Shown one piece after another: positions 6,326-62,851 of a stretch of DNA of 64,000 nucleotides. A model generated the notes under the pieces. The model saw only the letters and a list, made by a program, of their open reading frames with translations, was not told the DNA's origin and ran no database searches. Source of the DNA: Clostridia bacterium (GTDB lineage: Bacteria; Bacillota; Clostridia; Christensenellales; Borkfalkiaceae). How positions within the stretch are numbered: position 1 is the first letter of the stretch; each line of letters starts with the position of its first letter. Position numbers and translations under genes: made by a program. The DNA lies in NCBI GenBank assembly GCA_017536305.1, contig JAFXHR010000020.1:5088-69087 (forward strand), read 5' to 3'.

Positions 6326-8917
6326 ATGGCAAAGAGTGTAAAGAAAAATTATATTTACAATTTAATTTACCAAATTTTGGTGCTGTTAATTCCGCTCGTT
6401 TCCATGCCCTACCTTTCGCGAGTGTTGGAAGCGGACGGGATAGGGACGGTCAGCTACGCCGAGTCGATTGTGTCCTATTTCGTGCTCGTCGCGTCGCTGG
6501 GCACGGCGACCTACGGTCAACGGCAAATTTCCTACGTGCGTGATTCGGTGGAAGAGAGAAGTCGCGTCTTTTGGGAAACCCAGCTACTGCGAACGATAAT
6601 GACGGTAATCGTCAGCGGATTATACCTTATATTTGCGTTTTTCATAGCGGATAAATCGGCGACTTGGATTTACGTATTATTCGGTATACAGCTTTTGTCC
6701 GTATCGGCGGAAATCGTTTGGTTTTTTCAAGGCTTGGAAGAATTCGGCAAGGTCGTTCTTCGGAACATTTTTGTAAAAATCATATCGCTGATACTCTTCT
6801 TTCTTATCGTAAAAACCAAAGACGATTTACTCTATTACGTACTCATTTACGTGGGCGTAAATTTTGTTTGCGGTGTGTCGCTTTGGGGGTATTTACCCAA
6901 ATACGTAAAAAAAATACCGCTCAAAAGCTTGCGCCCGTTTCGGAATATCAAGGTGGTGCTTTCCTTGTTCTTACCGACCGTTGCGGTACAAATTTATACC
7001 GTTTTGGATAAGACGATGATAGGGCTTATCACGGGTAGCTCTTTTGAAAACGGCTATTACGAGCAGGCGTCGATAATCGCCAAGGTAGCGCTTACCGTTA
7101 TCACTGCGCTTGGTATCGTTATGATTTCGCGCGTAGGGTATTACTACGAAAAAGGTGAAACGGAAACGGTGCGTAGCTATTTGTATCGGAGTTACCGCTT
7201 TGCTTGGCTGTTGGCAATTCCTATGTGCTTAGGCTTAATTATGATTGCGCCCAACTTCGTACCGTGGTTTTTCGGTGCGGGGTATGACGGGGTAATACCG
7301 CTACTGCAAATTCAATCGGTGCTCATTATCTCGATAGGCATCAATATGGTTACGGGTAATCAATATTTAATACCGACAAAGCGTGAAAATATATATACCT
7401 TGACCGTGCTTATCGGTGCCGGTACGAATTTTATGCTCAATTTGTTTTTAATTTATCATTTCCAAGCGCTGGGCGCAGGGATTGCGTCGGTGGTAGCGGA
7501 AACGGTGATTGCTATCTTGCAAATTGTAATCGTCCGCAAGGAATTATCCCCTTGGAAGATTGTGAAATCGAGCGCAAAATACTGGATAGCAGGGCTTGTA
7601 ATGCTCGTGCCCTTGTATTTTGAAAATAAATACTTTGCCCCGTCTATGCTAAATACCTTGATAATGATAGCAAGCGGTGCGCTCGTATATGCTATGGTGT
7701 TATTCATTTTACGAGATGATTTTTTCCTGTCGAACATACAATCGGTGCTTGGCAGATTTATAAAAAGAAAAGATAAAAAAGGAGAAAGTATGAAATACGA
7801 TTATTTGGTAGTTGGCGCAGGACTTTACGGCGCGGTAGTAGCTCAGCAGGCAAAGGCACACGGGAAAAGCGTGCTCGTGATTGACAAACGGGAGAATATC
7901 GCAGGGAACGTATATACCGAAGAAATAGAGGGTATACAGGTGCATAAATACGGCGCGCATATTTTCCATACCAACGATAAAACGGTTTGGAATTATATCA
8001 CGCGCTTTGCGGAATTTAACCGTTTTACCAACTCTCCCGTGGCAAACTATAAAGGGGAGCTGTACTCTCTGCCCTTTAATATGTATACCTTTAATAAAAT
8101 GTGGGGCGTGGTAACCCCCGAAGAGGCGCAGGCAAAAATTGAAGAACAAAAACGCTCGGCGAATATTACCGAGCCGAAGAACTTGGAAGAGCAGGCAATT
8201 TCGCTCGTGGGCGTAGACATTTACGAAAAGCTCGTAAAGGGGTACACCGAAAAGCAATGGGGGCGCGATTGCAAGGATTTGCCCGCGTTTATCATTAAAC
8301 GCTTACCCGTTCGTTTTACCTTTGATAACAACTATTTCAACGCCTTGTATCAAGGTATTCCCGTCGGTGGTTATACGAAGATGGTCGCTAATCTTTTGGA
8401 CGGCGTGGAAGTGCGCTTGGGCGTGGACTATTTACAAAACAAAGCGGAGTACGACGCGTTAGCGGATAAGGTAATTTATACGGGCGCGATTGACGCGTAC
8501 TTTGATTATCAGCTCGGGTGCTTGGAATACCGCTCCGTTCGCTTTGAAACGGAAATTTTGGATAAGCCGAATTTCCAAGGCAACGTTGCCGTGAACTATA
8601 CGGATAGAGAAACGCCTTGGACGAGAATTATCGAGCATAAGTGGTTTGAGTTTGGCAAAGACGCCAACGGAAACGACCTGCCTAAGACGGTAATCAGCCG
8701 TGAATACAGCTCCGAGTGGAAACTTGGCGACGAGCCGTATTATCCCGTGAACGACGAGAAAAACGGTGCGCTGTTCAAGCAGTATAAAGAGCTTGCGGAC
8801 AGGGAAGAAAAGGTAGTGTTCGGCGGTAGACTTGGCGAATATAAATATTACGATATGGACCAAGTAATCGCGGTTGCGCTTAAAAAGAGCGAAGAATTAT
8901 TCGGCGATAACAAATAA
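6326..8917 (+). CDS. glf: Wzx-type oligosaccharide flippase fused in frame to UDP-galactopyranose mutase
   Basis: Single 863-codon frame. aa 1-~480 are a multi-TM MOP/Wzx flippase. From the in-frame ATG at 7790, MKYDYLVVGAGLYGAV...HKYGAHIFHT is classic Glf. AGGAGA RBS lies just upstream of 7790, with no stop between the two parts. Confidence 0.85.
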   Translation: MAKSVKKNYIYNLIYQILVLLIPLVSMPYLSRVLEADGIGTVSYAESIVSYFVLVASLGTATYGQRQISYVRDSVEERSRVFWETQLLRTIMTVIVSGLYLIFAFFIADKSATWIYVLFGIQLLSVSAEIVWFFQGLEEFGKVVLRNIFVKIISLILFFLIVKTKDDLLYYVLIYVGVNFVCGVSLWGYLPKYVKKIPLKSLRPFRNIKVVLSLFLPTVAVQIYTVLDKTMIGLITGSSFENGYYEQASIIAKVALTVITALGIVMISRVGYYYEKGETETVRSYLYRSYRFAWLLAIPMCLGLIMIAPNFVPWFFGAGYDGVIPLLQIQSVLIISIGINMVTGNQYLIPTKRENIYTLTVLIGAGTNFMLNLFLIYHFQALGAGIASVVAETVIAILQIVIVRKELSPWKIVKSSAKYWIAGLVMLVPLYFENKYFAPSMLNTLIMIASGALVYAMVLFILRDDFFLSNIQSVLGRFIKRKDKKGESMKYDYLVVGAGLYGAVVAQQAKAHGKSVLVIDKRENIAGNVYTEEIEGIQVHKYGAHIFHTNDKTVWNYITRFAEFNRFTNSPVANYKGELYSLPFNMYTFNKMWGVVTPEEAQAKIEEQKRSANITEPKNLEEQAISLVGVDIYEKLVKGYTEKQWGRDCKDLPAFIIKRLPVRFTFDNNYFNALYQGIPVGGYTKMVANLLDGVEVRLGVDYLQNKAEYDALADKVIYTGAIDAYFDYQLGCLEYRSVRFETEILDKPNFQGNVAVNYTDRETPWTRIIEHKWFEFGKDANGNDLPKTVISREYSSEWKLGDEPYYPVNDEKNGALFKQYKELADREEKVVFGGRLGEYKYYDMDQVIAVALKKSEELFGDNK

Positions 8918-30082: not shown

Positions 30083-31402
30083 ATGGCTTTATTCGGTTCA
30101 CTTTCGGAAAGATTAAACCATATATTTTCAAAGCTTACTAAGCGCGGAAAGCTGACGGAGCTTGAAATCCGCACGGCTATGCGTGAAGTGCGCGTGGCGC
30201 TTTTGGAGGCGGACGTCAATCTTCGCGTTGCCAAGCAATTTATCGCGGAAGTATCGGAAAAGGCGGTCGGGCAGGAAATCTTATCCTCGCTCAATCCTGC
30301 GCAACAGGTAATAAAAATCGTCAATGACGAGCTGATTGCGTTGATGGGCGCAAAGAACGCAAAATTAGAAGTATCGCCCAAGCTCCCGACGGTTATTATG
30401 ATGTGCGGTTTGCAGGGTGCTGGTAAAACCACCCTTTGCGGAAAGCTTGCGGTGCAACTGAAAAAGCAGGGCAAAAATCCTTTGCTCGTCGCAGGGGATA
30501 TTTACCGTCCCGCGGCGATTACACAATTACAAGTCGTAGGTAAAAACGCGCAAACGGAAGTATTTGAAAAGGGCACGCAAAGCCCCGTAAAGACGGCGAA
30601 ACAAGCGATTGAATACGCGCGCTCGAAAGGGTACGACACGGTCGTTTTGGACACGGCAGGGCGTTTACAAATCGACGAAACGCTGATGCAGGAGCTTGAA
30701 AATATTAAAAAAGAAGTGGAAGTAACGGAAACGCTACTCGTCGTAGACGCTATGACGGGGCAAGAGGCGGTCAACGTTGCGGAAACGTTCAATGCGCGTT
30801 TGGAAATCACGGGCGTGATTTTGACCAAATTAGACGGCGATACGCGTGGCGGTGCTTGTCTTTCGATTAAGGCAGTAACGGGCAAGCCCATTAAATTTAT
30901 CGGTGTAGGCGAAAAGCTTACCGATTTAGAGCCTTTCTATCCCGATAGAATGGCGTCGAGAATTTTGGGTATGGGCGACGTACTTTCGCTCATTGAAAAA
31001 GCGCAACAGGCAATCACGGAAGAAGACGCGAAAAAGATGCAACAAAAAATGCTTGCAAATTCGTTTACCCTTTCCGATTACTTGGAACAATTTTCTATGA
31101 TGAAGAAAATGGGCGGTGCGCAAGCCATGCTTTCTATGCTCCCTGGGGCGGGCAAATTAAAGGTGAACGAAGGGGATATCGACGAAAAGAAGATAGAACG
31201 CACGAAAGCGATTATCCTTTCTATGACCAAGGCAGAGCGCGACAATCCCTCGATAATCGACAGCAAGAGAAAACGCCGTATTTCGGCGGGCTCGGGCACG
31301 ACGGTACAGGAAGTCAACCAGCTCTTAAAGCAGTTTGACCAAACCAAACAACTGATGAAACAGTTGAAGGGGGGGCGTGGCAAATTCCGCTTACCCTTCT
31401 AA
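30083..31402 (+). CDS. ffh: Signal recognition particle protein
   Basis: GLQGAGKTT, DTAGRL and TKLDGDTRGG GTPase motifs. Met-rich M domain. Confidence 0.97.
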   Translation: MALFGSLSERLNHIFSKLTKRGKLTELEIRTAMREVRVALLEADVNLRVAKQFIAEVSEKAVGQEILSSLNPAQQVIKIVNDELIALMGAKNAKLEVSPKLPTVIMMCGLQGAGKTTLCGKLAVQLKKQGKNPLLVAGDIYRPAAITQLQVVGKNAQTEVFEKGTQSPVKTAKQAIEYARSKGYDTVVLDTAGRLQIDETLMQELENIKKEVEVTETLLVVDAMTGQEAVNVAETFNARLEITGVILTKLDGDTRGGACLSIKAVTGKPIKFIGVGEKLTDLEPFYPDRMASRILGMGDVLSLIEKAQQAITEEDAKKMQQKMLANSFTLSDYLEQFSMMKKMGGAQAMLSMLPGAGKLKVNEGDIDEKKIERTKAIILSMTKAERDNPSIIDSKRKRRISAGSGTTVQEVNQLLKQFDQTKQLMKQLKGGRGKFRLPF

Positions 31403-31406
31403 AAGC

Positions 31407-31597
31407 AAAACGACGTATCTACGTCGCATTTCGGCGTTGCCTTTCAGTTACGTGCTATTGCACGCGCCTTCAAGGCTCCTTGAACTGCTCGTATCTCCGT
31501 CGTTTTACCAGCATTAGTGTAATGTCATTGCGAACGAGTGTAACGAGTGTGGCAATCTCGTATAAATAATTCCGCAACGAATTGCAAAGCAATTCAC
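31407..31597 (+). repeat. Mosaic palindromic intergenic element, copy 1 (modules H-B1-C-mini D)
   Basis: H is CGACGTA-TC-TACGTCG at 31411-31426. B1 has hairpins CGTGC-TATT-GCACG and TTCAAGG-CT-CCTTGAA and ends CTCGTATCTCCGTCG+TTTTACCAG. C is GTCATTGCGA..(AACGAGTGT x2)..GTGGCAATC. It closes with GAATTGC-AAA-GCAATTC. Confidence 0.85.
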
Positions 31598-31942: not shown

Positions 31943-31950
31943 TCGATAGA

Positions 31951-32093
31951 AAACGACGTATATACGTCGCAATACAGCGTTGTCGCTCGCTTACGTACTA
32001 TCGGTACGCGCGCTCGCGACGCCTTGTCTTGCTCGTATCTACGCCGTTTTACCAAGATTGTCATTGCGAACGAGCAACGCGAGTGTGGCAATC
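31951..32093 (+). repeat. Mosaic palindromic intergenic element, copy 2 (modules H-B2-C)
   Basis: H is CGACGTA-TA-TACGTCG from 31954. B2 is ATACAGCGTTGTCGCTCGCTTACGTACTATCGGTACGCGCGCTCGCGACGCCTTGTCTTG plus CTCGTATCTACGCCGTTTTACCA. C ends GTGGCAATC at 32093. Confidence 0.85.
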
Positions 32094-32468: not shown

Positions 32469-32969
32469 ATGCAACGATTGACAATAGCCGAAGTTTTGAA
32501 ACCGCAAGGTATTCGCGGTGAACTTAAAATCAAAACATTTACCGACTTTCCCGAAGACGTGAAAGCGTTCAAAACGGTATATATCGACGACAAGCCGTAT
32601 AAAATTTTATCCTACCGCGTGGGCACGGACGGCTTTGCGTATATCGGTCTTCGCGGAATACCCGATAGAAACACGGCGGAGCTGTTCCGCGGTAAACTGC
32701 TCCAAGGCGAGCGCGACGACGCACCGCCCTTGGAAGAAGGTCAATATTATATCGTGGACATTCTCGGTCTTTCGTGTGAAACGGAAGATGGGGAAGTGCT
32801 CGGCACGGTCGTAGACGTGAGCTTGCTTTCGTCCGATATTTACACCATAGAAAAAGCAGGAAAGAAAATACTCTTTCCTGCCGTAAAAGGCGTCGTCAAA
32901 ACCGTCGATTTTGACAACAAAAAACTAATCGTCGATAAAAAGATTTTCGACGAAATCGCCGTTTATTGA
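32469..32969 (+). CDS. rimM: 16S rRNA processing protein RimM
   Basis: IAEVLKPQGIRGELKIK... N-terminal barrel and PRC-like C-terminus. Operon position. Confidence 0.9.
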   Translation: MQRLTIAEVLKPQGIRGELKIKTFTDFPEDVKAFKTVYIDDKPYKILSYRVGTDGFAYIGLRGIPDRNTAELFRGKLLQGERDDAPPLEEGQYYIVDILGLSCETEDGEVLGTVVDVSLLSSDIYTIEKAGKKILFPAVKGVVKTVDFDNKKLIVDKKIFDEIAVY

Positions 32970-33673
32970 GCGTCTTTTTTCGGACGCATTATAGCGGTCA
33001 ATTTATCCAAAACGCCCGTTTTGCAAAGCGCGATTAAAACGGCAATGGCAATGAGCGCGTCGAGCGGTACGTAGATGCATTGATAGATAAACGAATAAAC
33101 GAACGCGTTGCTCATAGCCCAGCTAGGCAAACTCACCCAAACGGAATCCTGCATAAAGAAAATCATACCCGAGAGTAGGTGTGAAATAAACCGCGCGGAA
33201 AATACGGTAACCGCGCCTAATACGATAGGCAAACAACCCTTTTCCTTGCGCGATATTTTTCCGAAAAAGCCCATAAGCCCAACGCTCATAAAGGCAAGCA
33301 GGTAATCGAAAAGGAAGGTAGCAGGTGTGAGAATATACGGGTCTTCGATAAAATTCAAGAGCCCGTGAATAAGCCCCACCAAGAGCCCGTCCGCTACGCC
33401 GTATACGTACGCAAAAATCAGGATAGGCACGAACGACGCGACGGTTACCGAACCGCCGTATTGCACGGGGCTGAACTTAATGACGGCAAGGGTAAAGGAC
33501 ATAGACACGCAAATACCTGCAAACGCAATCTTTTTCGCGTCCCATTTCTTACCGTTTTTCAAAAAGCCGATAAGCGCAATGACGGCTAAAACGAGTACGA
33601 CGCCGATAATGGAAATCCATTTCACGACGTTGGTGGTTTGCTCGGAAACTTCGAGCAGGGAATAAAGAAACAT
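32963..33673 (-). CDS. thiT: ECF-transporter S component, thiamine-specific (ThiT-like)
   Basis: 236-aa six-helix membrane protein with AGGAGG RBS. Preceded on the same strand by a TPP riboswitch. Confidence 0.7.
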   Translation of the reverse strand: MFLYSLLEVSEQTTNVVKWISIIGVVLVLAVIALIGFLKNGKKWDAKKIAFAGICVSMSFTLAVIKFSPVQYGGSVTVASFVPILIFAYVYGVADGLLVGLIHGLLNFIEDPYILTPATFLFDYLLAFMSVGLMGFFGKISRKEKGCLPIVLGAVTVFSARFISHLLSGMIFFMQDSVWVSLPSWAMSNAFVYSFIYQCIYVPLDALIAIAVLIALCKTGVLDKLTAIMRPKKDAQ

Positions 33674-33746: not shown

Positions 33747-33793
33747 AAATCCTTTTCGCCTATCCCGACAAACGGTATAGAGAAAAACGGTGA

Positions 33794-33871
33794 ACATCTC
33801 TCGCTCAGGTATTACCCTGCCGATTCAAATGGTATAATCTCAGCCTTAACAAAGGCACCCACGACGGATAT
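33794..33871 (-). promoter_or_regulatory. TPP (THI-box) riboswitch aptamer
   Basis: Minus strand reads AUAUC CGUCGU GGGUGCC UUUGUUAAGG CUGAGA UUAUACC AUUUGAAUC GGCAGG GUAAUA CCUGAGCGAGA GAUGU. It has the conserved CUGAGA, ACC, UGA and GGUAAUACC...AGCG elements and a P1 of AUAUC/GAUGU. Confidence 0.75.
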
Positions 33872-33957
33872 CAAATTTTAGTATTTATATTATAAATAAA
33901 AACGCAACGACTTGTCAAGCGTTTCAAACGAAAAATCATAAAAAGGAACAAACACTT

Positions 33958-36102: not shown

Positions 36103-36110
36103 AAAACGCG

Positions 36111-36364
36111 AAACGACGTATTTACGTCGCATTTCTTCGTCGCCTTTCAGTTACGTACTATCGGTACGCGCCTTCAAGGCTCCTTGAACTGCTTGTATCT
36201 ACGCCGTTTTACCAGCGTTAGCGTAATGTCATTGCGAGGAGCGTAGCGACGTGGCAATCGCATATAAATTTTACCGCAACGAATTGCGTAGAAATTCATT
36301 TCACGCGCGTAGCGCAATTCACGACGACAGTCAATTCACGGCACAAGCCCAACGGGCATTTCAC
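36111..36364 (+). repeat. Mosaic palindromic intergenic element, copy 3 (modules H-B1-C-D)
   Basis: H is CGACGTA-TT-TACGTCG from 36114, and B1 and C match copy 1. D is GAATT-GCGTAGA-AATTC, ATTTCAC, gcgcgtagcgc, AATTCAC (36316), gacgacagtc, AATTCAC (36333), ggcacaagcccaacgggc, ATTTCAC (36358). Confidence 0.85.
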
Positions 36365-38627: not shown

Positions 38628-39251
38628 ATGAAAGTATTACTTGTCAACGGCAGTCCGCACGAAAAGGGCTGTATCTACACCGCGCTTTTGGAAGTGTCGA
38701 AAACCTTAAACGAGCAGGGTATCGAAACGGAAATTTACCAGCTCGGCAAAGAACCGATTGCAGGCTGTTTGGGCTGTGGCGCGTGTGCAAAGCTTGGTAA
38801 ATGCGTGACGGAAGATAAGGTATCGGAATTTATCGAAAAAGCGAAAACGGCGGACGGTTTTATTTTCGGCTCGCCCGTATATTACGCGTCGCCGGCAGGC
38901 TCGCTTATCTGTTTTATGAACCGCGTATTTTACAGCGGTGGCAAATACCTTGCCTATAAACCGGCGTCGGCGGTGGTAAGTAGCCGTCGTGCAGGTTCGA
39001 CGACCACCTTTGACGCGCTCAATAAATATTTCACCATTAATAATATGCCGATAGTACCGTCCAACTACTGGAACGAAGTACACGGCGCGAACGGTAAAGG
39101 CGACGACGTTTTACGCGACGAAGAAGGTTTACAAACCATGCGCCTTATCGGGAACAATATGGCGTGGCTTTTACAATGCCTTGCCCTTGGCAAAGAAAAG
39201 GGTATTGCGCCTAAGACTGAGCTTAAAATCCGCACCAACTTCATTTCATAA
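38628..39251 (+). CDS. Flavodoxin-fold NAD(P)H-dependent FMN reductase / iron-sulfur flavoprotein-like
   Basis: MKVLLVNGSPHEKGC... (FMN_red-type N-terminus) and a Cys cluster CLGCGACAKLGKC. Confidence 0.7.
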   Translation: MKVLLVNGSPHEKGCIYTALLEVSKTLNEQGIETEIYQLGKEPIAGCLGCGACAKLGKCVTEDKVSEFIEKAKTADGFIFGSPVYYASPAGSLICFMNRVFYSGGKYLAYKPASAVVSSRRAGSTTTFDALNKYFTINNMPIVPSNYWNEVHGANGKGDDVLRDEEGLQTMRLIGNNMAWLLQCLALGKEKGIAPKTELKIRTNFIS

Positions 39252-39510
39252 AAACGACGTATCTACGTCGCAATACAGCTAAAAAAGTGAATTGCAAGCG
39301 TTGCTTGCGTGAATTTTCGCTATGCTCAATGAATTGCGTGGCAAAGCCACGCGTGAATTGCAACGCAAAGCGTTGCGTTATTGTATTATTTCCACAACGC
39401 CACCAAAGGTGGCAATTCATGAAAAACACAGTTTTTCAATTCACGCGTACAAAGTACGCAATTCACGACGGCAAAGCCGTCATTCACGGCATAAGCCCTA
39501 TCGTGGCAAC
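39252..39510 (+). repeat. Mosaic palindromic intergenic element, copy 4 (modules H-D, full dyad array)
   Basis: H is CGACGTA-TC-TACGTCG at 39255-39270. GTGAATT at 39287, 39309 and 39353 (GAATT at 39331). AATTCAT at 39414, AATTCAC at 39438 and 39460, ATTCAC at 39482. Each interval holds a different perfect 6-7-bp hairpin, mostly with AAA loops. Confidence 0.9.
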
Positions 39511-39518
39511 AACATAAC

Positions 39519-39555
39519 AAACCGCCCTTTGCCGTTATGGCAAAGGGCGGTTTTA
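39519..39555. terminator. Bidirectional rho-independent terminator
   Basis: AAACCGCCCTTTGCC-GTTA-TGGCAAAGGGCGGTTTT between the flavoprotein/repeat and the convergent ytxH-like gene. Confidence 0.85.
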
Positions 39556-45886: not shown

Positions 45887-48031
45887 ATGGAAACAACGTT
45901 AGATAAAATTAAACAACTGTATACGGCGGAAGATAGAGAGAAACTTATCAAAGCCTACGACTATGCCAAAGAGGCGCACGCAAACCAAAAGCGCGCGTCG
46001 GGCGAGCCGTACTTTATTCACCCCTGCGAAGTAGCGAATATTTTAATGGACTTGGGGCTGGATTGTGCCTGCGTGGTGTCCGCGCTTTTGCACGACGTCA
46101 TTGAAGATACCGCCTCTACGGAAGAAGATATACGCCGAGAATTTGGGGAAGAAGTATTACAGCTTGTGAGCGGTGTTACCAAGCTTGAAAAAATCGTATT
46201 CAAATCGCAGGAAGACGCGGACGCGGAAAATTTCCGTAAAATTTTCGTCGCGATGGCAAAGGACGTGCGCGTCATTATTATTAAATTAGCGGACAGATTG
46301 CACAATATGCGTTCGCTCAATTTCCTTTCGCACGAGCGCCAACAAAGAATGGCAAGCGAAACGCTGGAAATTTACGCACCCTTAGCCGGTCGGCTCGGTA
46401 TTTCGCAAATCAAGTGCGAGCTGGAAGATTTATGCTTAAAATATCTCGACCCCGAGTCGTACGAATATTTATTATACAATATCCGCGAACGCCTTTCCGA
46501 GCGCAAGGATTTCGTCGCGCAAATCGTGGAAGAAATCAAAGCGCTTATGGACAAGGACGGCGTAAAAGGGGAAGTGTTCGGACGACCCAAGCATTTTTAT
46601 TCCATCTATAAAAAGATGAAAAACAAGGGTAAAACGCTCGACCAAATCTACGACTTAACGGCGGTGCGCGTCATTGTCAAGGACGTGCGCGAGTGCTATA
46701 CCGTGCTTGGTGAAATCCACGAAAAATGGAAACCTATCCCTGGTCGCATTAAAGACTATATCGCAACCCCCAAGCCCAACAAATATCAATCCTTGCATAC
46801 GACGGTTATGACCAAATACGGTCAGCCGTTTGAAATCCAAATCCGCACCGAAGAAATGCATAAAATCGCGGAATTCGGTATCGCGGCGCACTGGAAATAT
46901 AAGGAAGGCAGAACGGATACCGAGCAGGGCGAAATTGAAAATAAGCTTGCTTGGCTTAGAGAAGTGATGGAATGGCAGGGCGACTTAAAGGACTCCAAGG
47001 AGTTCATCAGCGCGCTCAAAACGGAGCTTTACAGCCACGAATTGCTCGTCTTTACGCCCCGCGGAAAGGTCATATCCCTGCCCCCCGAGGCAACCCCCGT
47101 AGACTTTGCTTACGCCATTCACTCGGAAGTAGGCAACCGTTGCACGGGCGCGCGCGTCAATTCAAAAATCGTACCGCTTACGACGACATTAGAAGTGGGG
47201 GACGTCGTGGAAATTATCACGTCGCCCAACTCCAAAGGCCCGTCGCGCGACTGGTTAAAATTCATTAAATCGTCCAGCGCAAAAGCGAAGATTAAACAAT
47301 TCTATAAAAACGAATTAAAGGACGAAAATATCCGTATCGGTCAAATCAAGCTGGACGAAGAGGCGAAAAAACGCGGATTTTCCTTATCTACTTTATTGAC
47401 CGCGGATAGCTTTAAGCGCATTTCCGAGCGGTTCTCGTTCGGCGCGGAAGAAGAAATGTTCGCGGCGGTGGGTTACGGCTCTATCTCCGTTAATCAAATT
47501 TTATTCAAGCTGATTGATTATTACCGCAAGGAAACACCGCTTGCCTTAGATATCAAAGCGGGCGATACCAACCGCTCGCTCGGCGGTGTGCTCGTGAACG
47601 GCCAAGCGGGTATGCTCGTCAAATTTGCCGGCTGTTGTTCGCCCGTCCCTGGGGACGAAATCGTGGGTTATACTTCGCGTGGTCGCGGAGTGGTGATTCA
47701 CCGCCACGATTGTCCGAATATCAAGGGTATAGATGGAGCGCGCTTGCTCCCTGCGTCGTGGAGAGTGGAGGCAGGTACGAAACAACGCTACAACGCGAAC
47801 GTTGCCATTCGCGCCACCGAGCAAGGCTCGGCACTTTCCGTTTTATCACAGGTAGTTGCCGACTTAAAACTCTCTATCACGTCGGTCAACGGTCGTATTG
47901 ATAAGAACGGCGACGCAATTTTAGAGGCGTCCATCTCCCTAACGGACATAGCGGAAGTGGATATGCTTATCAAAAAGATGCAAGCGGATAAGAGGATATA
48001 CGAAGTCCACCGCATCACGTCTTTAAGCTAA
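45887..48031 (+). CDS. relA: Bifunctional (p)ppGpp synthetase/hydrolase (RSH)
   Basis: HD hydrolase LLHDVIEDT, synthetase GRPKHFYSIYKKM...YQSLHT, and TGS and ACT-like C-terminal domains. Confidence 0.95.
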   Translation: METTLDKIKQLYTAEDREKLIKAYDYAKEAHANQKRASGEPYFIHPCEVANILMDLGLDCACVVSALLHDVIEDTASTEEDIRREFGEEVLQLVSGVTKLEKIVFKSQEDADAENFRKIFVAMAKDVRVIIIKLADRLHNMRSLNFLSHERQQRMASETLEIYAPLAGRLGISQIKCELEDLCLKYLDPESYEYLLYNIRERLSERKDFVAQIVEEIKALMDKDGVKGEVFGRPKHFYSIYKKMKNKGKTLDQIYDLTAVRVIVKDVRECYTVLGEIHEKWKPIPGRIKDYIATPKPNKYQSLHTTVMTKYGQPFEIQIRTEEMHKIAEFGIAAHWKYKEGRTDTEQGEIENKLAWLREVMEWQGDLKDSKEFISALKTELYSHELLVFTPRGKVISLPPEATPVDFAYAIHSEVGNRCTGARVNSKIVPLTTTLEVGDVVEIITSPNSKGPSRDWLKFIKSSSAKAKIKQFYKNELKDENIRIGQIKLDEEAKKRGFSLSTLLTADSFKRISERFSFGAEEEMFAAVGYGSISVNQILFKLIDYYRKETPLALDIKAGDTNRSLGGVLVNGQAGMLVKFAGCCSPVPGDEIVGYTSRGRGVVIHRHDCPNIKGIDGARLLPASWRVEAGTKQRYNANVAIRATEQGSALSVLSQVVADLKLSITSVNGRIDKNGDAILEASISLTDIAEVDMLIKKMQADKRIYEVHRITSLS

Positions 48032-48260
48032 ACGACGTATCTACGTCGCAATACAGCGTTGTCGCTCGCTTACGTACTAACGGTACGCGCGCTCGCGACG
48101 CCTTGTCTTGCTCGTATCTCCGCCGTTTTACCAGCTATATCGGTACGCACGCGCCTTCAAGGCTCCTTGAACTGCTCGTATCTCCGCCGTTTTGCCAGTA
48201 TTTCGGTAAAATTGTATCTTGCTTTGTTTTTATCGCTCGGCTCCAAGTTTATAAATAACC
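48031..48260 (+). repeat. Mosaic palindromic intergenic element, copy 5 (modules H-B2-partial B1-tail)
   Basis: H is CGACGTA-TC-TACGTCG from 48033, 1 nt after the relA stop. B2 matches copy 2, followed by a partial B1. The 15-mer CTCGTATCTCCGCCG occurs at 48111-48125 and 48175-48189. Confidence 0.85.
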
Positions 48261-54735: not shown

Positions 54736-54770
54736 AAAACGGCGAGCCGAACGGCTCGCCAAATTTTTTA
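54736..54770. terminator. Bidirectional terminator between ABC exporter and mnmG
   Basis: AAAAAC-GGCGAGCCG-AA-CGGCTCGCC-AAATTTTTT. Confidence 0.8.
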
Positions 54771-56645
54771 TTTTCTCGTAGACAGCCAAACCATCAGCAC
54801 GGAAATATCAGCTGGATTGACCCCCGAAATTCTCCCTGCTTGACCTAAATTCAAAGGTCGTACACGGTTTAACTTTTCTCTTGCCTCCAAGCGAAGACCC
54901 AAAATGGTATCGTAATCAATATCCTCGGGCAACGCCTTATCTTCCAAGCGTTTCGCCCGTTCAATGAGTTCGTTACCCTGCTTTAAGTACCCTTCGTATT
55001 TCACGGTAATTTCCGCCGTTTCCAAAACGTTTTTCGGGTATTCTTTGAGCGTATCGAACGCTTGTATAATATCCTTTAAGGGCACGGAGCGTTTAATCAT
55101 ATCCGCGTAGGATACGCTCCCCGACGGCTCGTCGTAGCCGTAATTTTTCAAAAACTCGCCCGCCTGTTTTTGGGACACGCGCGTCGTTCTAAGCTCGGAA
55201 AGCAACCGTTCGCAATCGGCTTTTCTTTGTAAAAACCGCTCGTAGCGTGCAGGCGTTACCAGCCCGATTTCCCTGCCCTTTTCCGTCAATCTAAAATCGG
55301 CGTTATCCTGTCGCAAGCAAATACGGTGCTCGGCGCGCGAAGTCATCATTCGATACGGCTCGTCCGTACCTTTCGTTACCAAATCGTCGATTAACACGCC
55401 GATATACGCCTCGTCCCGACGCAAAATAAAGGGGGGCAGACCTTTCATTTTCAAGCCTGCGTTAATCCCTGCCATTAAGCCCTGCGCCGCCGCCTCTTCA
55501 TAGCCTGACGTACCGTTAATTTGTCCTGCGGTATACACGCCTTCCACCTTTTTGAACTCCAAGGTCGGGAGCACGTCCAAGGTATCAATACAATCGTATT
55601 CAATCGCGTAGCCGTACCGCATAATATCGGCATGCTCCAAGCCCGCCACCGACGCATACATAGCGCGCTGGGTGTCGTGGGGCATAGAAGTAGACATACC
55701 CTGTACGTATACTTCCAAGGTATCCGCGCCCTCGGGCTCTAAGAAAATTTGATGCCGTTCCTTATCCTTAAACCGTACCACCTTCGTTTCAATGGACGGA
55801 CAATACCGAGGACCCGTGGATACAATCGTACCGTTATATAAAGGGGAACGCTTAAGATTATCCAAAATAATTTCGTGCGTTTGTAAATTCGTATAAGTCA
55901 AATAGCAGGGCATTTTATTTTCAGGCGGTGTATCGTGCATAAAGGAAAAAGGATAAATATCCGTGTCCCCGTTTTGCACTTCGCACTTAGAATAATCCAC
56001 CGTCCGCCCGTCTACACGCGCAGGCGTGCCCGTCTTAAACCTACGAATAGTAAACCCGATTTTTGCCAAGCTCTCCGTCAAGTGATTTGCGGGCGCAAAC
56101 CCGTTCGGACCAGACTTTTGCACCAGCTCGCCCGTAATCGTTTCGCTGTTTAAGTACACGCCCGTACAAAGAATAACGCACTTGCAGGCAATCACGCCGT
56201 TATACGCCGTTTTCACGCCCACGCATTTCCCGTTCTCCACCAAAATTTCCGTCGCTTCCGCTTGTAAAATACGCAAATTTTGGGTATTTTCGAGCACCCG
56301 TTTCATTTCACGGTGATAGGCGTTCTTATCCGATTGCGCGCGCAAGCTTTGCACCGCCGCACCCTTGCCTACGTTGAGCATACGGATTTGCAAAGCGGTA
56401 TCGTCGGCAACGATACCCATTTGACCGCCGAGCGCGTCGATTTCCCGTACCAAATGTCCCTTAGCCGTACCGCCAATGGACGGATTGCAAGGCAAAAAAG
56501 CAATGGCGTCGAGATTGAGCGTCAAAAGCACCGTTTGAAAACCTAACCGCGCCAAAGCAAGGGCGGATTCGCACCCTGCGTGCCCTGCGCCCACGACCAC
56601 CGCGTCCGCGGTATATTCTAAAAATTCCGTACTATTGTTCGTCAT
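54768..56645 (-). CDS. mnmG: tRNA uridine-5-carboxymethylaminomethyl synthesis enzyme MnmG (GidA)
   Basis: VVVGAGHAGCE FAD motif. 625 aa, with typical GidA conservation throughout. Confidence 0.95.
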   Translation of the reverse strand: MTNNSTEFLEYTADAVVVGAGHAGCESALALARLGFQTVLLTLNLDAIAFLPCNPSIGGTAKGHLVREIDALGGQMGIVADDTALQIRMLNVGKGAAVQSLRAQSDKNAYHREMKRVLENTQNLRILQAEATEILVENGKCVGVKTAYNGVIACKCVILCTGVYLNSETITGELVQKSGPNGFAPANHLTESLAKIGFTIRRFKTGTPARVDGRTVDYSKCEVQNGDTDIYPFSFMHDTPPENKMPCYLTYTNLQTHEIILDNLKRSPLYNGTIVSTGPRYCPSIETKVVRFKDKERHQIFLEPEGADTLEVYVQGMSTSMPHDTQRAMYASVAGLEHADIMRYGYAIEYDCIDTLDVLPTLEFKKVEGVYTAGQINGTSGYEEAAAQGLMAGINAGLKMKGLPPFILRRDEAYIGVLIDDLVTKGTDEPYRMMTSRAEHRICLRQDNADFRLTEKGREIGLVTPARYERFLQRKADCERLLSELRTTRVSQKQAGEFLKNYGYDEPSGSVSYADMIKRSVPLKDIIQAFDTLKEYPKNVLETAEITVKYEGYLKQGNELIERAKRLEDKALPEDIDYDTILGLRLEAREKLNRVRPLNLGQAGRISGVNPADISVLMVWLSTRK

Positions 56646-56654
56646 AAATCCAAC

Positions 56655-57992
56655 TTACTTTTTCAAAACGATACTCTTAATATCGTCGATTTCTTTCGCT
56701 ACTTTATCGCTCAATTTCACGAGCTTTTCCATCTTATCGCGCGCATACATAATCGTCGTATGGTCGCGTCCGCCTAACCTTTCGCCGACGGCAACAAGGG
56801 GGAGCGAGAGCATTTCGCACATCAAATACGCGCAAATTTGCCGAGCTTTCGCCAAATCCGCCTGTCTGCTTTTTCCGAGTAAATCTTCGCGTTTTTGCTT
56901 AAAATAAGAACAAACGGCGTTGATAATGGTATCGGGGGTCAATTCTTCTTGCGACTCCGATTCCTTTACCGATTCACTAAGAGCACGGCGGGCAAGCTCC
57001 AACGTAATCGGTTCTTCGTGCAATTTACTTGCAAAAATGACCTTCGTCAGTCTACCTTCCAGCGTTCTGACGTCGTGTCCCGAATCCTGCGCTAAGAACG
57101 CCAAAACGTCGTCGGGTACGGCGCATTTTCTATCCAGCGCCTTACGGCGTAAAATGGCAATTTTCGTTTCCGTTGTCGGCGGTTGAATATCCGCAATCAT
57201 ACCCCCTTCAAAACGCGTTCTCAAACGCTCTTCGAGCGTAGGAATTTCCTTCGGCGGTCTGTCCGACGTCAAAACGATTTGTTTGTTTTGCGCTTTCAGC
57301 TCGTTAAAGGTATGGAAAAATTCTTCCTGTACCTGCGTTTTATTCTTCAAAAATTGCACGTCGTCAATCATTAAAACGTCTACGTTGCGATAGTGCAACC
57401 GAAACTGCGCACCGCTCCTTTGCGCAATAGAATCGATAAACTCGTTCAAGAAGTTTTCGCAGGTGGTATAAAGCACGCGCTTTTCAGGCGATTTTACCGC
57501 TAAATCGTTGGCAATCGCTTGCATAAGGTGCGTTTTACCAAGCCCCGACTCCCCGTAAATAAACAGGGGGTTAAAGGTATCGTCCCCAGGGTTTTCCGCA
57601 ACCGCTTTCGCCGCCGCGTATACGAACTTATTCCCAGGTCCCGTTACGAACGAATCAAAGGTAAAATTCTTGTTCAAAGGGGAGGGCTGGAACGCTTCGA
57701 TAGCGTCGTTTTCAATATTCATTGAAAATTCCTTGCTCTCGTCCACGACCAAGCGGAAATCGTTGACACCCAAATCGCACTTTTGGATAGCCTCTCTGAG
57801 CTTGTCCGCGTGCTTATTCATCACGACGTTCGCCGCCATATCGGTAGACGCTTTCAACACGATTTTTCTACCCGTAATATCAATCGGCTCTAACGGTTTG
57901 ATAAAGGAATCGTAAGACACGGGCGAAATCAAATTTTCCACCCGTTCGCTGATTTGTTTCCAAACGTATTGAAGTTGCGTATTCTCTGCCAT
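56655..57992 (-). CDS. dnaA: Chromosomal replication initiator protein DnaA
   Basis: FTFDSFV, GESGLGKTHL, IMIDDVQF, and domain IV GGRDHTTIMYA. Confidence 0.97.
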   Translation of the reverse strand: MAENTQLQYVWKQISERVENLISPVSYDSFIKPLEPIDITGRKIVLKASTDMAANVVMNKHADKLREAIQKCDLGVNDFRLVVDESKEFSMNIENDAIEAFQPSPLNKNFTFDSFVTGPGNKFVYAAAKAVAENPGDDTFNPLFIYGESGLGKTHLMQAIANDLAVKSPEKRVLYTTCENFLNEFIDSIAQRSGAQFRLHYRNVDVLMIDDVQFLKNKTQVQEEFFHTFNELKAQNKQIVLTSDRPPKEIPTLEERLRTRFEGGMIADIQPPTTETKIAILRRKALDRKCAVPDDVLAFLAQDSGHDVRTLEGRLTKVIFASKLHEEPITLELARRALSESVKESESQEELTPDTIINAVCSYFKQKREDLLGKSRQADLAKARQICAYLMCEMLSLPLVAVGERLGGRDHTTIMYARDKMEKLVKLSDKVAKEIDDIKSIVLKK

Positions 57993-60182: not shown

Positions 60183-61565
60183 ATGGAAAGACTTACCCTG
60201 AAAGAACTCAACAAAAAGGTAGAAAGCTACGCGGATAAAACGGTAACGGTGGCAGGCTGGGCGAGAACGATTCGCGACTCCAAAGCCTTCGGCTTTATTG
60301 AGCTGAACGACGGTAGCTGTTTTAAGAGCACGCAAATCGTATTCGAGCGTGCAAATTTAGCGAATTACGACGAAATTGCGCACGGCAACGTAGGTATGTC
60401 GCTCGTTATAAAGGGCGTAGTGGTATTGACGCCTGAAAATAAACAACCGTATGAAATCAAAGCGACGGAAATCGCGGTTGAAGGGGAATCGACGCCCGAT
60501 TATCCCCTGCAAAAGAAACGCCATTCCGTCGAATTTTTGCGTGAAATCGCATATTTGCGCCCCCGTACCAACCTGTTTGGCGCAACGTTTAGAATTCGTA
60601 GCGAATCGGCAATCGCCATTCATAAATTCTTCAACGACAGGGGCTTTGTTTACGTGCATACTCCCATTATTACGGGTAGCGACTGCGAAGGCGCAGGCGC
60701 AATGTTCCAAGTAACCACGCTGAACTTAGAAGAAAAGGGTAAAGTGGATTATAAGGACGACTTTTTCGGTAAAAAATCCGCGCTGACCGTATCGGGGCAA
60801 TTAAACGCCGAGGCGTACGCAATGGCTTTTGGGAACGTTTACACGTTCGGACCTACTTTCCGTGCGGAACATTCCAACACGGCGCGCCACGCGGCGGAGT
60901 TTTGGATGATAGAGCCGGAAATGGCGTTTTGCGATTTGCAAGGGGATATGGACGTAGCCGAGGCAATGGTAAAATACGTAATCGACTACGTAAGCGAAAC
61001 TTGCGCGGACGAAATCAATTTCTTAAATCAATTCGTGGATAACGGCTTAAAGGAACGCTTAAAGAACGTATCCGAAAACGCGTTCGTCCGTTTAACGTAT
61101 ACCGAGGCGATTGAAATTTTGAAACAAAACGCGGATAAATTCGACGATAAGAATATTTTCTGGGGTAAGGATTTGCAAAGCGAACACGAACGCTTTATCA
61201 CCGAAGTCGTTTATAAAAAACCCGTATTCTTGACGGATTATCCCAAGGAAATCAAAGCGTTTTATATGAAACAAAACCCCGATGGAAAGACGGTTGCGGC
61301 GGCGGACTTGCTCGTCCCTGGTATCGGTGAGCTCGTCGGTGGTTCGCAAAGAGAAGACGACTACGATAAGCTGGTCGCGCGTATTCAAGAGATGGGTATG
61401 AACCCCGAAGATTATTCGTGGTACTTGAACCTGCGCAAATACGGCGGTACGACGCACAGTGGTTTCGGACTTGGCTTTGAGCGTATGATAATGTATTTGA
61501 CGGGGGTAGCGAATATACGCGACGTGTTGCCGTTCCCCCGCACCGTAGGTAACTTAGACTACTAA
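60183..61565 (+). CDS. asnS: Asparagine--tRNA ligase
   Basis: N-terminal OB fold ([25 protein letters not shown]). Class II motifs [21 protein letters not shown] and GFGLGFERM. Confidence 0.92.
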
Positions 61566-61567
61566 GC

Positions 61568-61780
61568 GAAACGCGTATATACGTCGCAAAAAAATGAATT
61601 GCAAGCAAAGCTTGCGTGAATTTTCGTGCATACTCAATGAATTGCGTGGCAAAGCCACGCGTGAAATGCAACGCAAAGCGTTGCGTTGTGGAATATTACA
61701 ACAACGCCACCGTAGGTGGCAATTCATGCCCAGCGGGCAATTCACGCGCGTAGCGCAATTCACGACGACAGTCAATTCAC
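61568..61780 (+). repeat. Mosaic palindromic intergenic element, copy 6 (degenerate H plus full dyad D array)
   Basis: ACGCGTATATACGTCGC head. ATGAATT at 61594, GTGAATT at 61616, GAATT at 61639, GTGAAAT at 61661. AATTCAT at 61721 and AATTCAC at 61739, 61757 and 61774. Cassettes are gcccagcgggc, gcgcgtagcgc and gacgacagtc. Confidence 0.9.
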
Positions 61781-61804
61781 TATTTTATCTAAAGGAGCAA
61801 TATT

Positions 61805-62851
61805 ATGACCAAAATCGTAATAGACGCAATGGGCGGTGATTACGCGCCCAAACAGCAGGTACTCGGTGCGGTAACTGCCTTAAATAAAGACAAAGATTTA
61901 TACTTAATTCTCGTTGGGGATAAAGAACAAATCGAAAACGAGCTCAAAACGCTTTCGTACGATAAATCGCGCTTGGAAATTGTGCACACGACGGAAGTGA
62001 TTACCATGGAAGAAGTCCCCACGAAAGCGGTGAAAACGAAAAAGGACTCGTCGCTCGTCGTCGCGTTCCGTCTTTTGAAAGAAGGCAAAGCGGATGGGCT
62101 GGTATCGTCCGGCTCGACGGGTGCGGTGCTTACCGCAGGCGTACTTATTTTAGGTCGGATAAAAGGGGTATCCCGCCCTGCGCTTTGTCCTGCCATTCCC
62201 AACTACAAAGGGGGCGCAACCCTGCTTTGCGATTGTGGCGCAAATTTAGAATGTAAGCCGATTAACCTTATCCACTTTGCCATTATGGCGTCGGCGTATG
62301 CAAGCACGGTATACGGTATCGAAAGCCCCAAGGTAGGACTTTTGAACAACGGCACGGAAGACCATAAGGGCTTGCTTTTACATCAAGAGAGCAACGCGCT
62401 TTTGAAACAAGTGGACTGCATTTCGTATAGCGGGAACGTAGAAGGTCGCGAGATTATGTACGGCGACGTAGACGTAGTGGTATCCGACGGCTTTTCGGGC
62501 AACTTAGCAATGAAAGCGGTAGAAGGTTGCGGAAAAGCGGTCAGCAGTATTATGAAACGGGAATTTAAGCGCAATTTATGGACGAAACTGCGCGCGCTCC
62601 TTTGCGGAGATATTATCAAAAACATTAAAAAGGGCTTGGACTACGAGGCACAAGGCGGTGCAACCTTCTTAGGGCTTACCAAAGCGGTGGTCAAAGGGCA
62701 CGGAAACTCCAAAGCGCGCGGATTTTCCGTATGTATCGAACAGGTGGCAAGCGCGGTACGCGGTAATATGACGGAAAAGATTAAAGGGATGGTAGACGCG
62801 GTAAATTTAGACGCACTCGCGCAAGCGTCGCAAACGGGAGCAAACGAATAA
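61805..62851 (+). CDS. plsX: Phosphate acyltransferase PlsX
   Basis: IVIDAMGGDYAP, SSGSTGA and KGHGNS motifs. Confidence 0.93.
   Translation: MTKIVIDAMGGDYAPKQQVLGAVTALNKDKDLYLILVGDKEQIENELKTLSYDKSRLEIVHTTEVITMEEVPTKAVKTKKDSSLVVAFRLLKEGKADGLVSSGSTGAVLTAGVLILGRIKGVSRPALCPAIPNYKGGATLLCDCGANLECKPINLIHFAIMASAYASTVYGIESPKVGLLNNGTEDHKGLLLHQESNALLKQVDCISYSGNVEGREIMYGDVDVVVSDGFSGNLAMKAVEGCGKAVSSIMKREFKRNLWTKLRALLCGDIIKNIKKGLDYEAQGGATFLGLTKAVVKGHGNSKARGFSVCIEQVASAVRGNMTEKIKGMVDAVNLDALAQASQTGANE

Follow-up and report, generated by a model that had tools for sequence, protein, structure and literature searches.

The spacer between asnS and plsX holds a dense array of small palindromes directly upstream of plsX, which raises the question of whether the array controls this gene or is a repeat that came to rest there. 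We addressed this for a 64,000-nt stretch of contig JAFXHR010000020.1 from a Clostridia bacterium (the whole stretch is hereafter called the window), in which the palindromes are punctuated by the heptamer AATTCAC and form an array that we call copy 6. It turned out that the array belongs to a multi-copy element, which occurs at unrelated loci in many species. Copy 6 is probably a clade-specific, non-coding, mobile and recombining mosaic DNA repeat without a dedicated role for plsX. It resembles repetitive extragenic palindromes (REPs) and bacterial interspersed mosaic elements (BIMEs) or the miniature inverted-repeat transposable elements (MITEs), with an architecture of its own. The repeat family is apparently undescribed, and we found no prior description of it.

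Layout of the asnS-plsX array

Positions 61566-61804 are the entire 239-nt spacer, and its parts are listed below with the flanking genes (copies 3 and 4 are further copies in the window, and handles beginning with L denote comparison loci).

60183-61565: asnS, asparaginyl-tRNA synthetase, 460 aa
61566-61593, plus strand: head region, with the palindrome variant AACGCGTATATACGTCGCA at 61570-61588 and then an A-run
61594-61780, plus strand: array proper of copy 6
61594-61684, plus strand: left arm, four heptamers, each followed by a cassette
61594-61600, plus strand: left-arm heptamer H1, ATGAATT
61601-61615, plus strand: left-arm cassette X1, GCAAGC-AAA-GCTTGC
61616-61622, plus strand: left-arm heptamer H2, GTGAATT
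61623-61636, plus strand: left-arm cassette X2, non-palindromic, TTCGTGCATACTCA, of a type that recurs in L045, L063, L083 and L119
61637-61643, plus strand: left-arm heptamer H3, ATGAATT
61644-61660, plus strand: left-arm cassette X3, GCGTGGC-AAA-GCCACGC
61661-61667, plus strand: left-arm heptamer H4, GTGAAAT
61668-61684, plus strand: left-arm cassette X4, GCAACGC-AAA-GCGTTGC
61685-61705, plus strand: core, GTTGTGGAATATTACAACAAC, a 21-nt asymmetric imperfect inverted repeat with GTTGTGG/GTTGTTG halves and an AT-rich centre
61706-61780, plus strand: right arm, four cassettes, each followed by an AATTCAC-type heptamer
61706-61720, plus strand: right-arm cassette Y4, GCCACC-GTA-GGTGGC, also in copy 4 and L119
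61721-61727, plus strand: right-arm heptamer AATTCAT
61728-61738, plus strand: right-arm cassette Y3, GCCC-AGC-GGGC (GCCCAGCGGGC)
61739-61745, plus strand: right-arm heptamer AATTCAC
61746-61756, plus strand: right-arm cassette Y2, GCGC-GTA-GCGC (GCGCGTAGCGC)
61757-61763, plus strand: right-arm heptamer AATTCAC
61764-61773, plus strand: right-arm cassette Y1, GAC-GACA-GTC (GACGACAGTC)
61774-61780, plus strand: right-arm heptamer AATTCAC
61781-61804, plus strand: plsX leader, with the Shine-Dalgarno (SD) sequence AAAGGAG at 61791-61797
61805-62851: plsX, with the RNase III gene and smc downstream

Three of the left-arm cassettes are perfect palindromes and the fourth, X2, is the recurrent non-palindromic one. 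The left-arm heptamers, (G/A)TGAATT, are the reverse complement of AATTCA(C/T) in the right arm, and the array is laid out as 4+4 units about a conserved core. An earlier reading of the letters alone (the sequence-only reading) missed both the mirror symmetry and this layout. Its statements on the letters themselves were all confirmed: it had correctly described the three AATTCAC heptamers at 61739, 61757 and 61774, the palindromes between them, the short period of the right arm (18/18/17 nt) and the end of the array, whose last heptamer lies 24 nt 5' of the plsX ATG and upstream of AAAGGAG. Its description of the head as degenerate has to be replaced: the head is the locus's own variant AAACGCG, matching the CGCGTTT kept in sister alleles, and indicates no decay of the array. 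Because the sister strain L154 is identical up to 61588 and then diverges, and because AAACGCG matches the CGCGTTT of L154, the head region is a leftover of an ancestral module of another type (type A), outside the array proper.

The array is not an assembly artefact, because seven other independent metagenome assemblies carry the same array. The pattern also greatly exceeds chance, and most of the exact AATTCAC sites in the window (12 of 15) fall within four spacers. Beyond the four arrays, exact AATTCAC or GTGAATT was found 3 times in about 63 kb, compared with about 10 expected for the whole window, and this scarcity may be a mild avoidance.

Constrained stems and drifting loops

Two other copies in the window bear on how copy 6 was formed.

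39245-39500, plus strand: copy 4, the closest paralogue of copy 6 in the window, with a head and a complete 4+4 element
36271-36364, plus strand: copy 3, a half-core and a right arm, within a larger composite that begins at 36104

Copy 4 sits in the 3' untranslated region (UTR) of a flavin mononucleotide (FMN) reductase gene, upstream of an intrinsic terminator (39519-39553). As the sequence-only reading had proposed, the left half of copy 6 is nearly identical to copy 4 (90-92% identity; 61588-61626 versus 39281-39319 and 61630-61694 versus 39322-39386), and the hairpin differences between the two copies are confined to loops: GCAAGC-AAA-GCTTGC versus GCAAGC-GTT-GCTTGC, and GCCACC-GTA-GGTGGC versus GCCACC-AAA-GGTGGC. 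The left arm is collinear with copy 4 (39287-39376) and, in reverse complement, with L119, an element at a non-orthologous locus of a sheep-colon metagenome-assembled genome (MAG); the three elements can be aligned over about 200 nt, each cassette with its counterpart. At the right end, the last two cassettes and heptamers are as in copy 3, also as proposed (61738-61780 versus 36297-36339, 98% identity, 42 of 43 nt), and copy 3 looks like their source-like partner. The right-arm cassettes had been taken for swapped ones. In the three-way alignment of copy 4, copy 6 and L119 they sit in positionally homologous slots of one 8-hairpin element. Most of the cassette sharing is explained by common descent and a recombination event or two. 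The GCGC-loop-GCGC hairpin slot of copy 6, for example, is common to L119, copy 3, L130 and L154.

The core of copy 6 is inverted relative to that of copy 4 (39377-39398), with 19 of 22 matches in reverse complement versus 16 of 22 in direct comparison, in spite of the collinear flanking arm, as if a small segment bounded by hairpins had been inverted or an arm exchanged. The sequence-only reading missed this as well. The core lies in either orientation relative to the GCAACGC cassette in other species too (L045 and L101 versus L119). A core orientation that depends on the replichore was rejected, as the GC skew has no switch between copy 4 and copy 6.

To count differences by position we used three pairs of paralogues (copy 4/copy 6, copy 3/copy 6 and two copies in L019). 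It turned out that stems differ at 0 of 150 positions (about 3 more with the other copy as reference), heptamers at 3 of 98, loops at 11 of 45 and other unpaired positions at 18 of 87 (stems versus loops, Fisher p = 3e-8). Hypermutation of loops as the sole cause was rejected, since other unpaired segments diverge too (about 12-20%); the loop-only changes need no more than a relaxed constraint and exchange among paralogues.

In an unfitted MAFFT alignment of 11 elements of different species, 90.7% of the cells are paired, compared with 67% after shuffling and 25-42% when the partners are slid. Nearly two thirds of the pairs (31 of 48) change on both sides, and 86 cells carry double changes versus only 3 with one-sided changes of the G-U type. 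The earlier claim that stems are spared while loops vary is thus borne out, with stem changes nearly always compensated across the 11 species. These alignments show that the palindromes are strictly Watson-Crick and co-vary, with drift in the loops and other unpaired parts. Wobble pairs are normally tolerated in structured RNAs. Their near-absence here, with both strands equally complementary, therefore points to a constraint or a generating process at the DNA level.

For the whole family, we collected 86 distinct heptamer-flanked cassette sequences among 90 instances. Perfect terminal stems are present in 66 of the 86, compared with 2.0 in shuffles; the first base is G in 74 and the last base is C in 78. 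The loop is closed by C-G in 57 of the 66 perfect-stem cassettes, with loop sizes of 3 nt in 42 and 4 nt in 16. On the AATTCAC strand, G..A loops outnumber T..C loops by 19 to 1, whatever the genomic orientation. The GNA triloop closed by C-G is a hyperstable DNA mini-hairpin motif (PMC13037366).

The minimum-free-energy fold also predicts a ladder of four-way junctions, in which heptamers of the left and right arms pair with each other. We rejected this structure: the heptamer variants of the two arms in L044 and L101 are without mutual compensation, so there is no selection for a long-range heptamer helix.

Distribution in gut and rumen Clostridia

A pattern scan with one genome per species, in which the other matches were ordinary tandem repeats, recovered this design from 15 or more loci or species-level MAGs of uncultured gut and rumen Clostridia; all comparison data are metagenome assemblies. 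The MAGs are labelled Clostridia bacterium, Clostridiales bacterium or Candidatus Scatosoma and come from ruminant and chicken guts. In their elements, AATTCAC heptamers alternate with G...C palindromes of 9-18 nt, usually in two mirrored arms, with a heptamer spacing of 16-25 nt. In at least 10 species all complete elements have a core, of the pattern GTTGTGG...CAATAAC/CCATAAC, which comes in a short (21-23 nt) or a long (31-50 nt) form and in both orientations.

Within arms, units of cassette plus heptamer are tandemly duplicated in L012 and L033, and a single heptamer variant is homogenised along one arm in L044 and in one of the elements of L154 (E2). Single arms point either way with respect to the genes (L033 versus the window), and the elements in L019, L058 and L080 lie beyond terminators or between convergent terminators. 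L019 contains two near-identical complete elements (1860-2090 and 6990-7208), inverted and 5 kb apart. The segment between them, which may be invertible or acquired, encodes a D12-class adenine methyltransferase, QueT, DUF1256 and others, and a mobility gene was not found in it.

Turnover of spacers between strains

The asnS-plsX spacer of related genomes has the following states.

L151, L152 and L134 (PlsX 72-83% at the aa level): spacer of 23-44 nt, no element (in L134 a lone ATTTCAC)
L153 (PlsX 80% aa): spacer with one type-A module
L149, the outgroup (PlsX 89% aa): spacer with type-A modules and a GTCATTGCG module
L130 and L156 (PlsX 89% aa for L130): two type-A modules and a degenerate right arm
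L154, the sister strain (PlsX 99.4% aa and 98.3% nt; flanks 98.2%): type-A and GTCATTGCG modules, no array
L007 and L009 (PlsX 100% aa): the same non-array state as L154
L158-L162 (95-96% nt): two more non-array variants

The identity of L154 with the window ends at 61588, the end of the head, and homology starts again at 61792, within the SD (L154 from 9988 aligns to the window from 61792 at 98.5%). In between, L154 has 223 nt of type-A and GTCATTGCG modules in place of the 203 nt that hold the array in the window. Because the right end of the non-array state matches the outgroup L149, this comparison of alleles identifies the array as the derived state, a recent insertion that is present in some strains only and has replaced older modules between the head and the plsX SD.

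The same two strains differ at three more spacers. The smc-ftsY spacer has an array of the same kind (type 1) in L154 and type-A modules in the window strain. A composite of about 290 nt (L154 16545-16842) is inserted exactly in the ancestral ATGA overlap of the ftsY stop and the trmD start (L002 11846-11849), an overlap that L149, L156 and the window strain have kept. With the insert come a new SD and a TAA stop, and TAT may have been duplicated; L154 also has about 200 extra nt after trmD. The two trmD-flanking elements of L154 share a 131-nt identical block, and beyond it every loop and every heptamer variant differs. Overall, 4 of about 5 module-bearing spacers differ between the window strain and L154, which are 98% identical.

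These data confirm the earlier proposal that the copies are mosaics, as seen in the right end of copy 6 shared with copy 3, its left arm shared with copy 4, the 131-nt block of L154 and the spacer interiors swapped between strains. That single cassettes are exchanged at the heptamer is borne out only in part. One of the junctions that can be placed lies at a heptamer (copy 3/copy 6), and the others lie at the core edge (L154 E1/E2) and, for allele replacement, at the head and the SD, so that an exchange specific to the heptamer, or templated there, is not demonstrated. Besides, L149 and L150 have identical PlsX and different upstream genes (asnS versus a DUF711 gene) joined inside type-A modules; either the repeat was the site of a rearrangement or the assembly is chimeric.

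Relation to known repeat classes

With Rfam 15, at gathering thresholds and permissive E-values, the arrays gave only chance-level matches (E >= 0.58). BLAST against plasmids and phages gave no match to the array, and a pattern scan of viral contigs gave unrelated tandem repeats or iterons only. Among about 50 neighbouring genes, all housekeeping, there is no transposase, Cas or Nop (Tas) gene. Resemblances of the core or heptamer to a geminivirus-type nonanucleotide (AATATTAC), a DnaA box, dif/Xer, parS, an ARG box and a Rex box were rejected as coincidental; they match the consensus sequences in part only, and the long-core variants do not preserve them.

The closest likeness is to REP and BIME sequences of Enterobacteria and Pseudomonas. 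Like these, the elements are abundant short GC-rich palindromes, intergenic, mostly transcribed and downstream of genes, with an unpaired conserved tag beside the hairpin, mosaic composites with other short motifs, and opposed units around a linker. A REP has a conserved palindrome of 20-40 bp and an unpaired GTAG/CGTC tag (PMC3733652). Here the relation is reversed: the palindromes (9-18 nt) vary and a 7-nt tag is constant, whereas the REP palindrome (20-40 nt) is the constant part. The tag is AATTCAC, 3' of the hairpin, with GTAG only inside loops; the units are in tandem with one orientation per arm instead of alternating; the asymmetric core is conserved; and no RAYT gene (for a REP-associated tyrosine transposase) is known. 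The elements therefore share with REP and BIME the intergenic mosaic clusters downstream of open reading frames (ORFs), and lack the conserved palindrome and the GTAG/CGTC tag.

REP doublets forming hairpins (REPINs) with their RAYTs, and the palindrome-associated transposable elements (PATEs) derived from IS200/IS605, are likewise two-armed, dyad-symmetric, non-autonomous hairpin units without long terminal inverted repeats, possibly acted upon as single-stranded DNA (ssDNA); here the heads are all on one strand. In contrast to them, the arms are non-complementary except for the heptamers, each arm has four hairpins, and no single-tyrosine (Y1) transposase was found. MITEs, the pneumococcal BOX element (boxA-boxB(n)-boxC) and the Neisseria intergenic mosaic elements (NIME) with dRS3 are also about 200 bp, non-coding, multi-copy and variable in presence between strains, with a variable number of internal modules, a mosaic structure and, as in NIME, short conserved punctuation between variable segments. 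Like MITEs, our element is polymorphic for presence and absence at orthologous sites. A MITE is a non-coding unit of 100-400 bp between terminal inverted repeats and a target-site duplication. Our element differs in that the terminal inverted repeats are of 8 nt only, a clear target-site duplication is missing apart from a possible TAT in one insertion, and the modules are covarying perfect mini-palindromes. The C-GNA-G triloop mini-hairpins on one strand recall the phage G4 origin and RSF1010 ssiA, which work only in single-stranded DNA; those are single-copy origins with defined primase partners, whereas here dozens of arrays are dispersed without a replication context.

Interpretation and alternative explanations

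The array is probably not a conserved control element of plsX, and its function at the locus would be selfish or neutral. If it is a mobile mosaic repeat as we favour, the constraint would act on DNA, with short hairpins forming when either strand is single-stranded and with C-GNA-G mini-hairpin loops favoured on the AATTCAC strand. Palindromy might be upheld because foldable copies propagate, or because the palindrome arms correct each other. The element may spread by two routes, namely ectopic recombination or gene conversion between spacers with common modules (head, core, heptamers, SD) and occasional true insertion into empty sites. The array would at most add stable hairpins to the asnS-plsX transcript.

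Several observations weigh against a mobile repeat. The ends of the array, GTGAATTG and CAATTCAC, are inverted over 8 nt, and beyond this the type-1 array has no clear terminal inverted repeat and its flanks no consistent target-site duplication; the one clean insertion, in L154, has only the possible TAT duplication. A tblastn search with IS200 TnpA and RayT found no histidine-hydrophobic-histidine (HUH)/Y1 gene in the family loci, which amount to only about 0.3 Mb, a sample too small to carry much weight. The conservation of stem sequences across species could equally mean a host-level function. The composites, from the head through the right arm, are co-oriented with the flanking genes in about 12 of 12 cases in this species and often end just before an SD, which fits a role at the RNA level or in translation. 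Repeats can also cause chimeras in metagenome assemblies; yet each allele is present in at least two independent assemblies.

A specific mechanistic version of the mobile repeat, which we consider possible though doubtful, has a dedicated ssDNA enzyme (a RAYT or IS200-like HUH transposase, an integron-like recombinase or a primase-type factor) that reads a hairpin with a 3' AATTCAC and adds, deletes and exchanges units. The intrinsic strand asymmetry of the GNA loops is consistent with such an enzyme, and so are the tandem duplication of units, the homogenisation of heptamers along an arm, the position of all heads on the strand of positive GC skew, and the conserved single-stranded tag beside a hairpin defined by structure only, like the GTAG/CGTC tags of REPs (PMC3733652). 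The heptamer spacing of 16-25 nt would matter little if the hairpins fold from single strands. However, neither the sampled loci nor the window yielded an HUH/Y1 gene, the hairpin sequences vary while RAYTs recognise conserved REPs, and the allele replacements look anchored by homology at the head and the SD.

The alternative that the array is an RNA structure of benefit to the host is unlikely in our analysis. It would lie within the asnS-plsX message and protect the upstream mRNA 3' end, uncouple the two cistrons or keep the plsX SD accessible, as has been proposed for operons with REP elements. Arrays do lie in transcribed spacers or 3' UTRs, with copy 4 between a stop codon and a terminator. 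In copy 6 we found no convincing promoter, and the search for an intrinsic terminator gave weak pattern matches only (X1 followed by GTGAATTTTCG), with no hairpin adjoining a T-run. A divergent promoter, with a -35 TTGNNN from GTGAATTG and a -10 TAATAT in the core, was rejected as a general feature, as only 3-4 of 8 elements have the 18-nt spacing and the others have 20-21 nt; in copy 6 it would fire antisense into asnS. The region folds more stably than its shuffles as RNA (z-score -3.8), and as DNA on both strands (-4.5 and -5.1). The co-orientation of the composites, the arrays that often end 10-25 nt 5' of an SD, and the L154 insert that brings its own TAA stop and SD also favour an RNA role. 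On the other side, near-identical strains and relatives live without the array, elements stand beyond terminators or between convergent ones, and single arms face either way along the genes. Besides, G-U pairs are nearly absent (3 versus 86 double changes), which is atypical of helices selected as RNA, and triloops prevail instead of the tetraloops that RNA favours.

We give still less credence to a broader idea, that the heptamer-tagged mini-hairpins are substrates of an ssDNA recombination or transposition system of uncultured gut Clostridia, which would copy, exchange and insert entire intergenic spacer cassettes between operon junctions. A spacer cassette may in this case comprise the head near the stop codon, the hairpin arrays and a tail with the SD. 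The machinery would be a new one, REP/RAYT- or integron-like, and may read the hairpin by structure, free of sequence, together with the 7-nt tag.

Very improbable is an array of binding sites in double-stranded DNA (iteron-, ParB- or nucleoid-protein-like), in which GTGAATT would be the motif recognised and the core would bind a dimer. The conserved heptamer and core half-sites, the dyad symmetry and the nearby dnaA would suit it; however, heptamers spaced by 16-25 bp are out of phase with the helix, perfect palindromy of the spacers between sites is unexplained, copies are scattered and a given copy exists in some strains only, and the GC skew gives no origin at the site.

A guide-RNA array, either of the CRISPR type or of the tandem interspaced guide RNA (TIGR) stem-loop type, is effectively refuted by the anatomy: a short constant motif does alternate with variable units, and in TIGR arrays too the stems of the tandem units are "variable but consistently palindromic" (PMC12045711), but the same stems recur between species, dozens of short arrays are dispersed in housekeeping spacers, and no Tas (Nop), Cas or IS110 gene is nearby. 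A TIGR unit has two spacers of 8-12 nt, box C/D motifs and an adjacent Tas (Nop-domain) gene (PMC12045711), whereas here the loops of 3-4 nt are too small for such spacers, and box C/D motifs and an adjacent effector are absent. A CRISPR array has direct repeats of 23-47 nt, unique spacers of 26-72 nt and cas genes, compared with a 7-nt repeat, palindromes of 9-18 nt and no cas genes here.

As the repeat that we favour, the element adds a distinct architecture to the few catalogued bacterial intergenic palindromic repeats: a constant single-stranded tag combined with perfect mini-palindromes of free sequence, in a 4+4 dyad symmetry about a core that occurs in both orientations. Its hosts are a large clade of uncultured gut and rumen Clostridia, from which such elements apparently had not been described before. 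Since their turnover outpaces the accumulation of point mutations, the elements break metagenome assemblies, and they could be used to mark strains. Operon junctions may be remodelled by them: one insertion splits an overlapping stop and start and brings a stop and an SD of its own. With wobble pairs almost entirely absent, they are a clean case for studying how palindromes are maintained at the DNA level, and a dedicated enzyme, if it exists, would recognise structure plus a 7-nt tag.

Other modules and features of the window

The window contains six head copies, all on the plus strand and each directly after a stop codon. All six lie at 31-62 kb, within housekeeping operons, and none in the first 30 kb. 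Positions 1-30000, without head or array copies, are mostly a polysaccharide-biosynthesis cluster (glycosyltransferases, a Wzy-like protein, a fusion of a flippase and UDP-galactopyranose mutase (UGM), epimerases), and housekeeping genes follow. The window also holds two further kinds of module.

31401-31523, 31944-32059, 36104-36227 and 48023-48220: type-A modules, about 110-130 nt, each opening with the head palindrome
31524-31557, 32060-32093 and 36228-36259: GTCATTGCGA...GGCAATC hairpin module

The type-A modules, which had no Rfam match, are a second kind of module within the same mosaic system. Their 5' AAAACGACG can pair with the 3' CGTCGTTTT, and this end pair co-varies in relatives (AAAACGCA/TGCGTTTT in L083, AAAACGAAG/CTTCGTTTT in L149 and AAACGCG/CGCGTTT in L154). 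The GTCATTGCGA...GGCAATC module resembles the REP-like "GTCATTGCGAGCGAAGCG..AATC" sequences of several phyla, and its inner part looks like the non-palindromic cassette TGAGCG(A)AGCGAA of the array.

The genes mnmG and dnaA (54768-57992) are on the minus strand among plus-strand genes, and the GC skew is positive on both sides of dnaA, so there is no replichore switch at this place in the window. Positions 33782-33872 of the minus strand match the thiamine pyrophosphate (TPP) riboswitch with 47.4 bits, below the gathering score of 54.3 (E = 4.6e-7). The match lies upstream of a gene for a thiamine transporter of the ThiT/YuaJ type (32963-33673, minus strand) and is probably a genuine low-scoring THI element.

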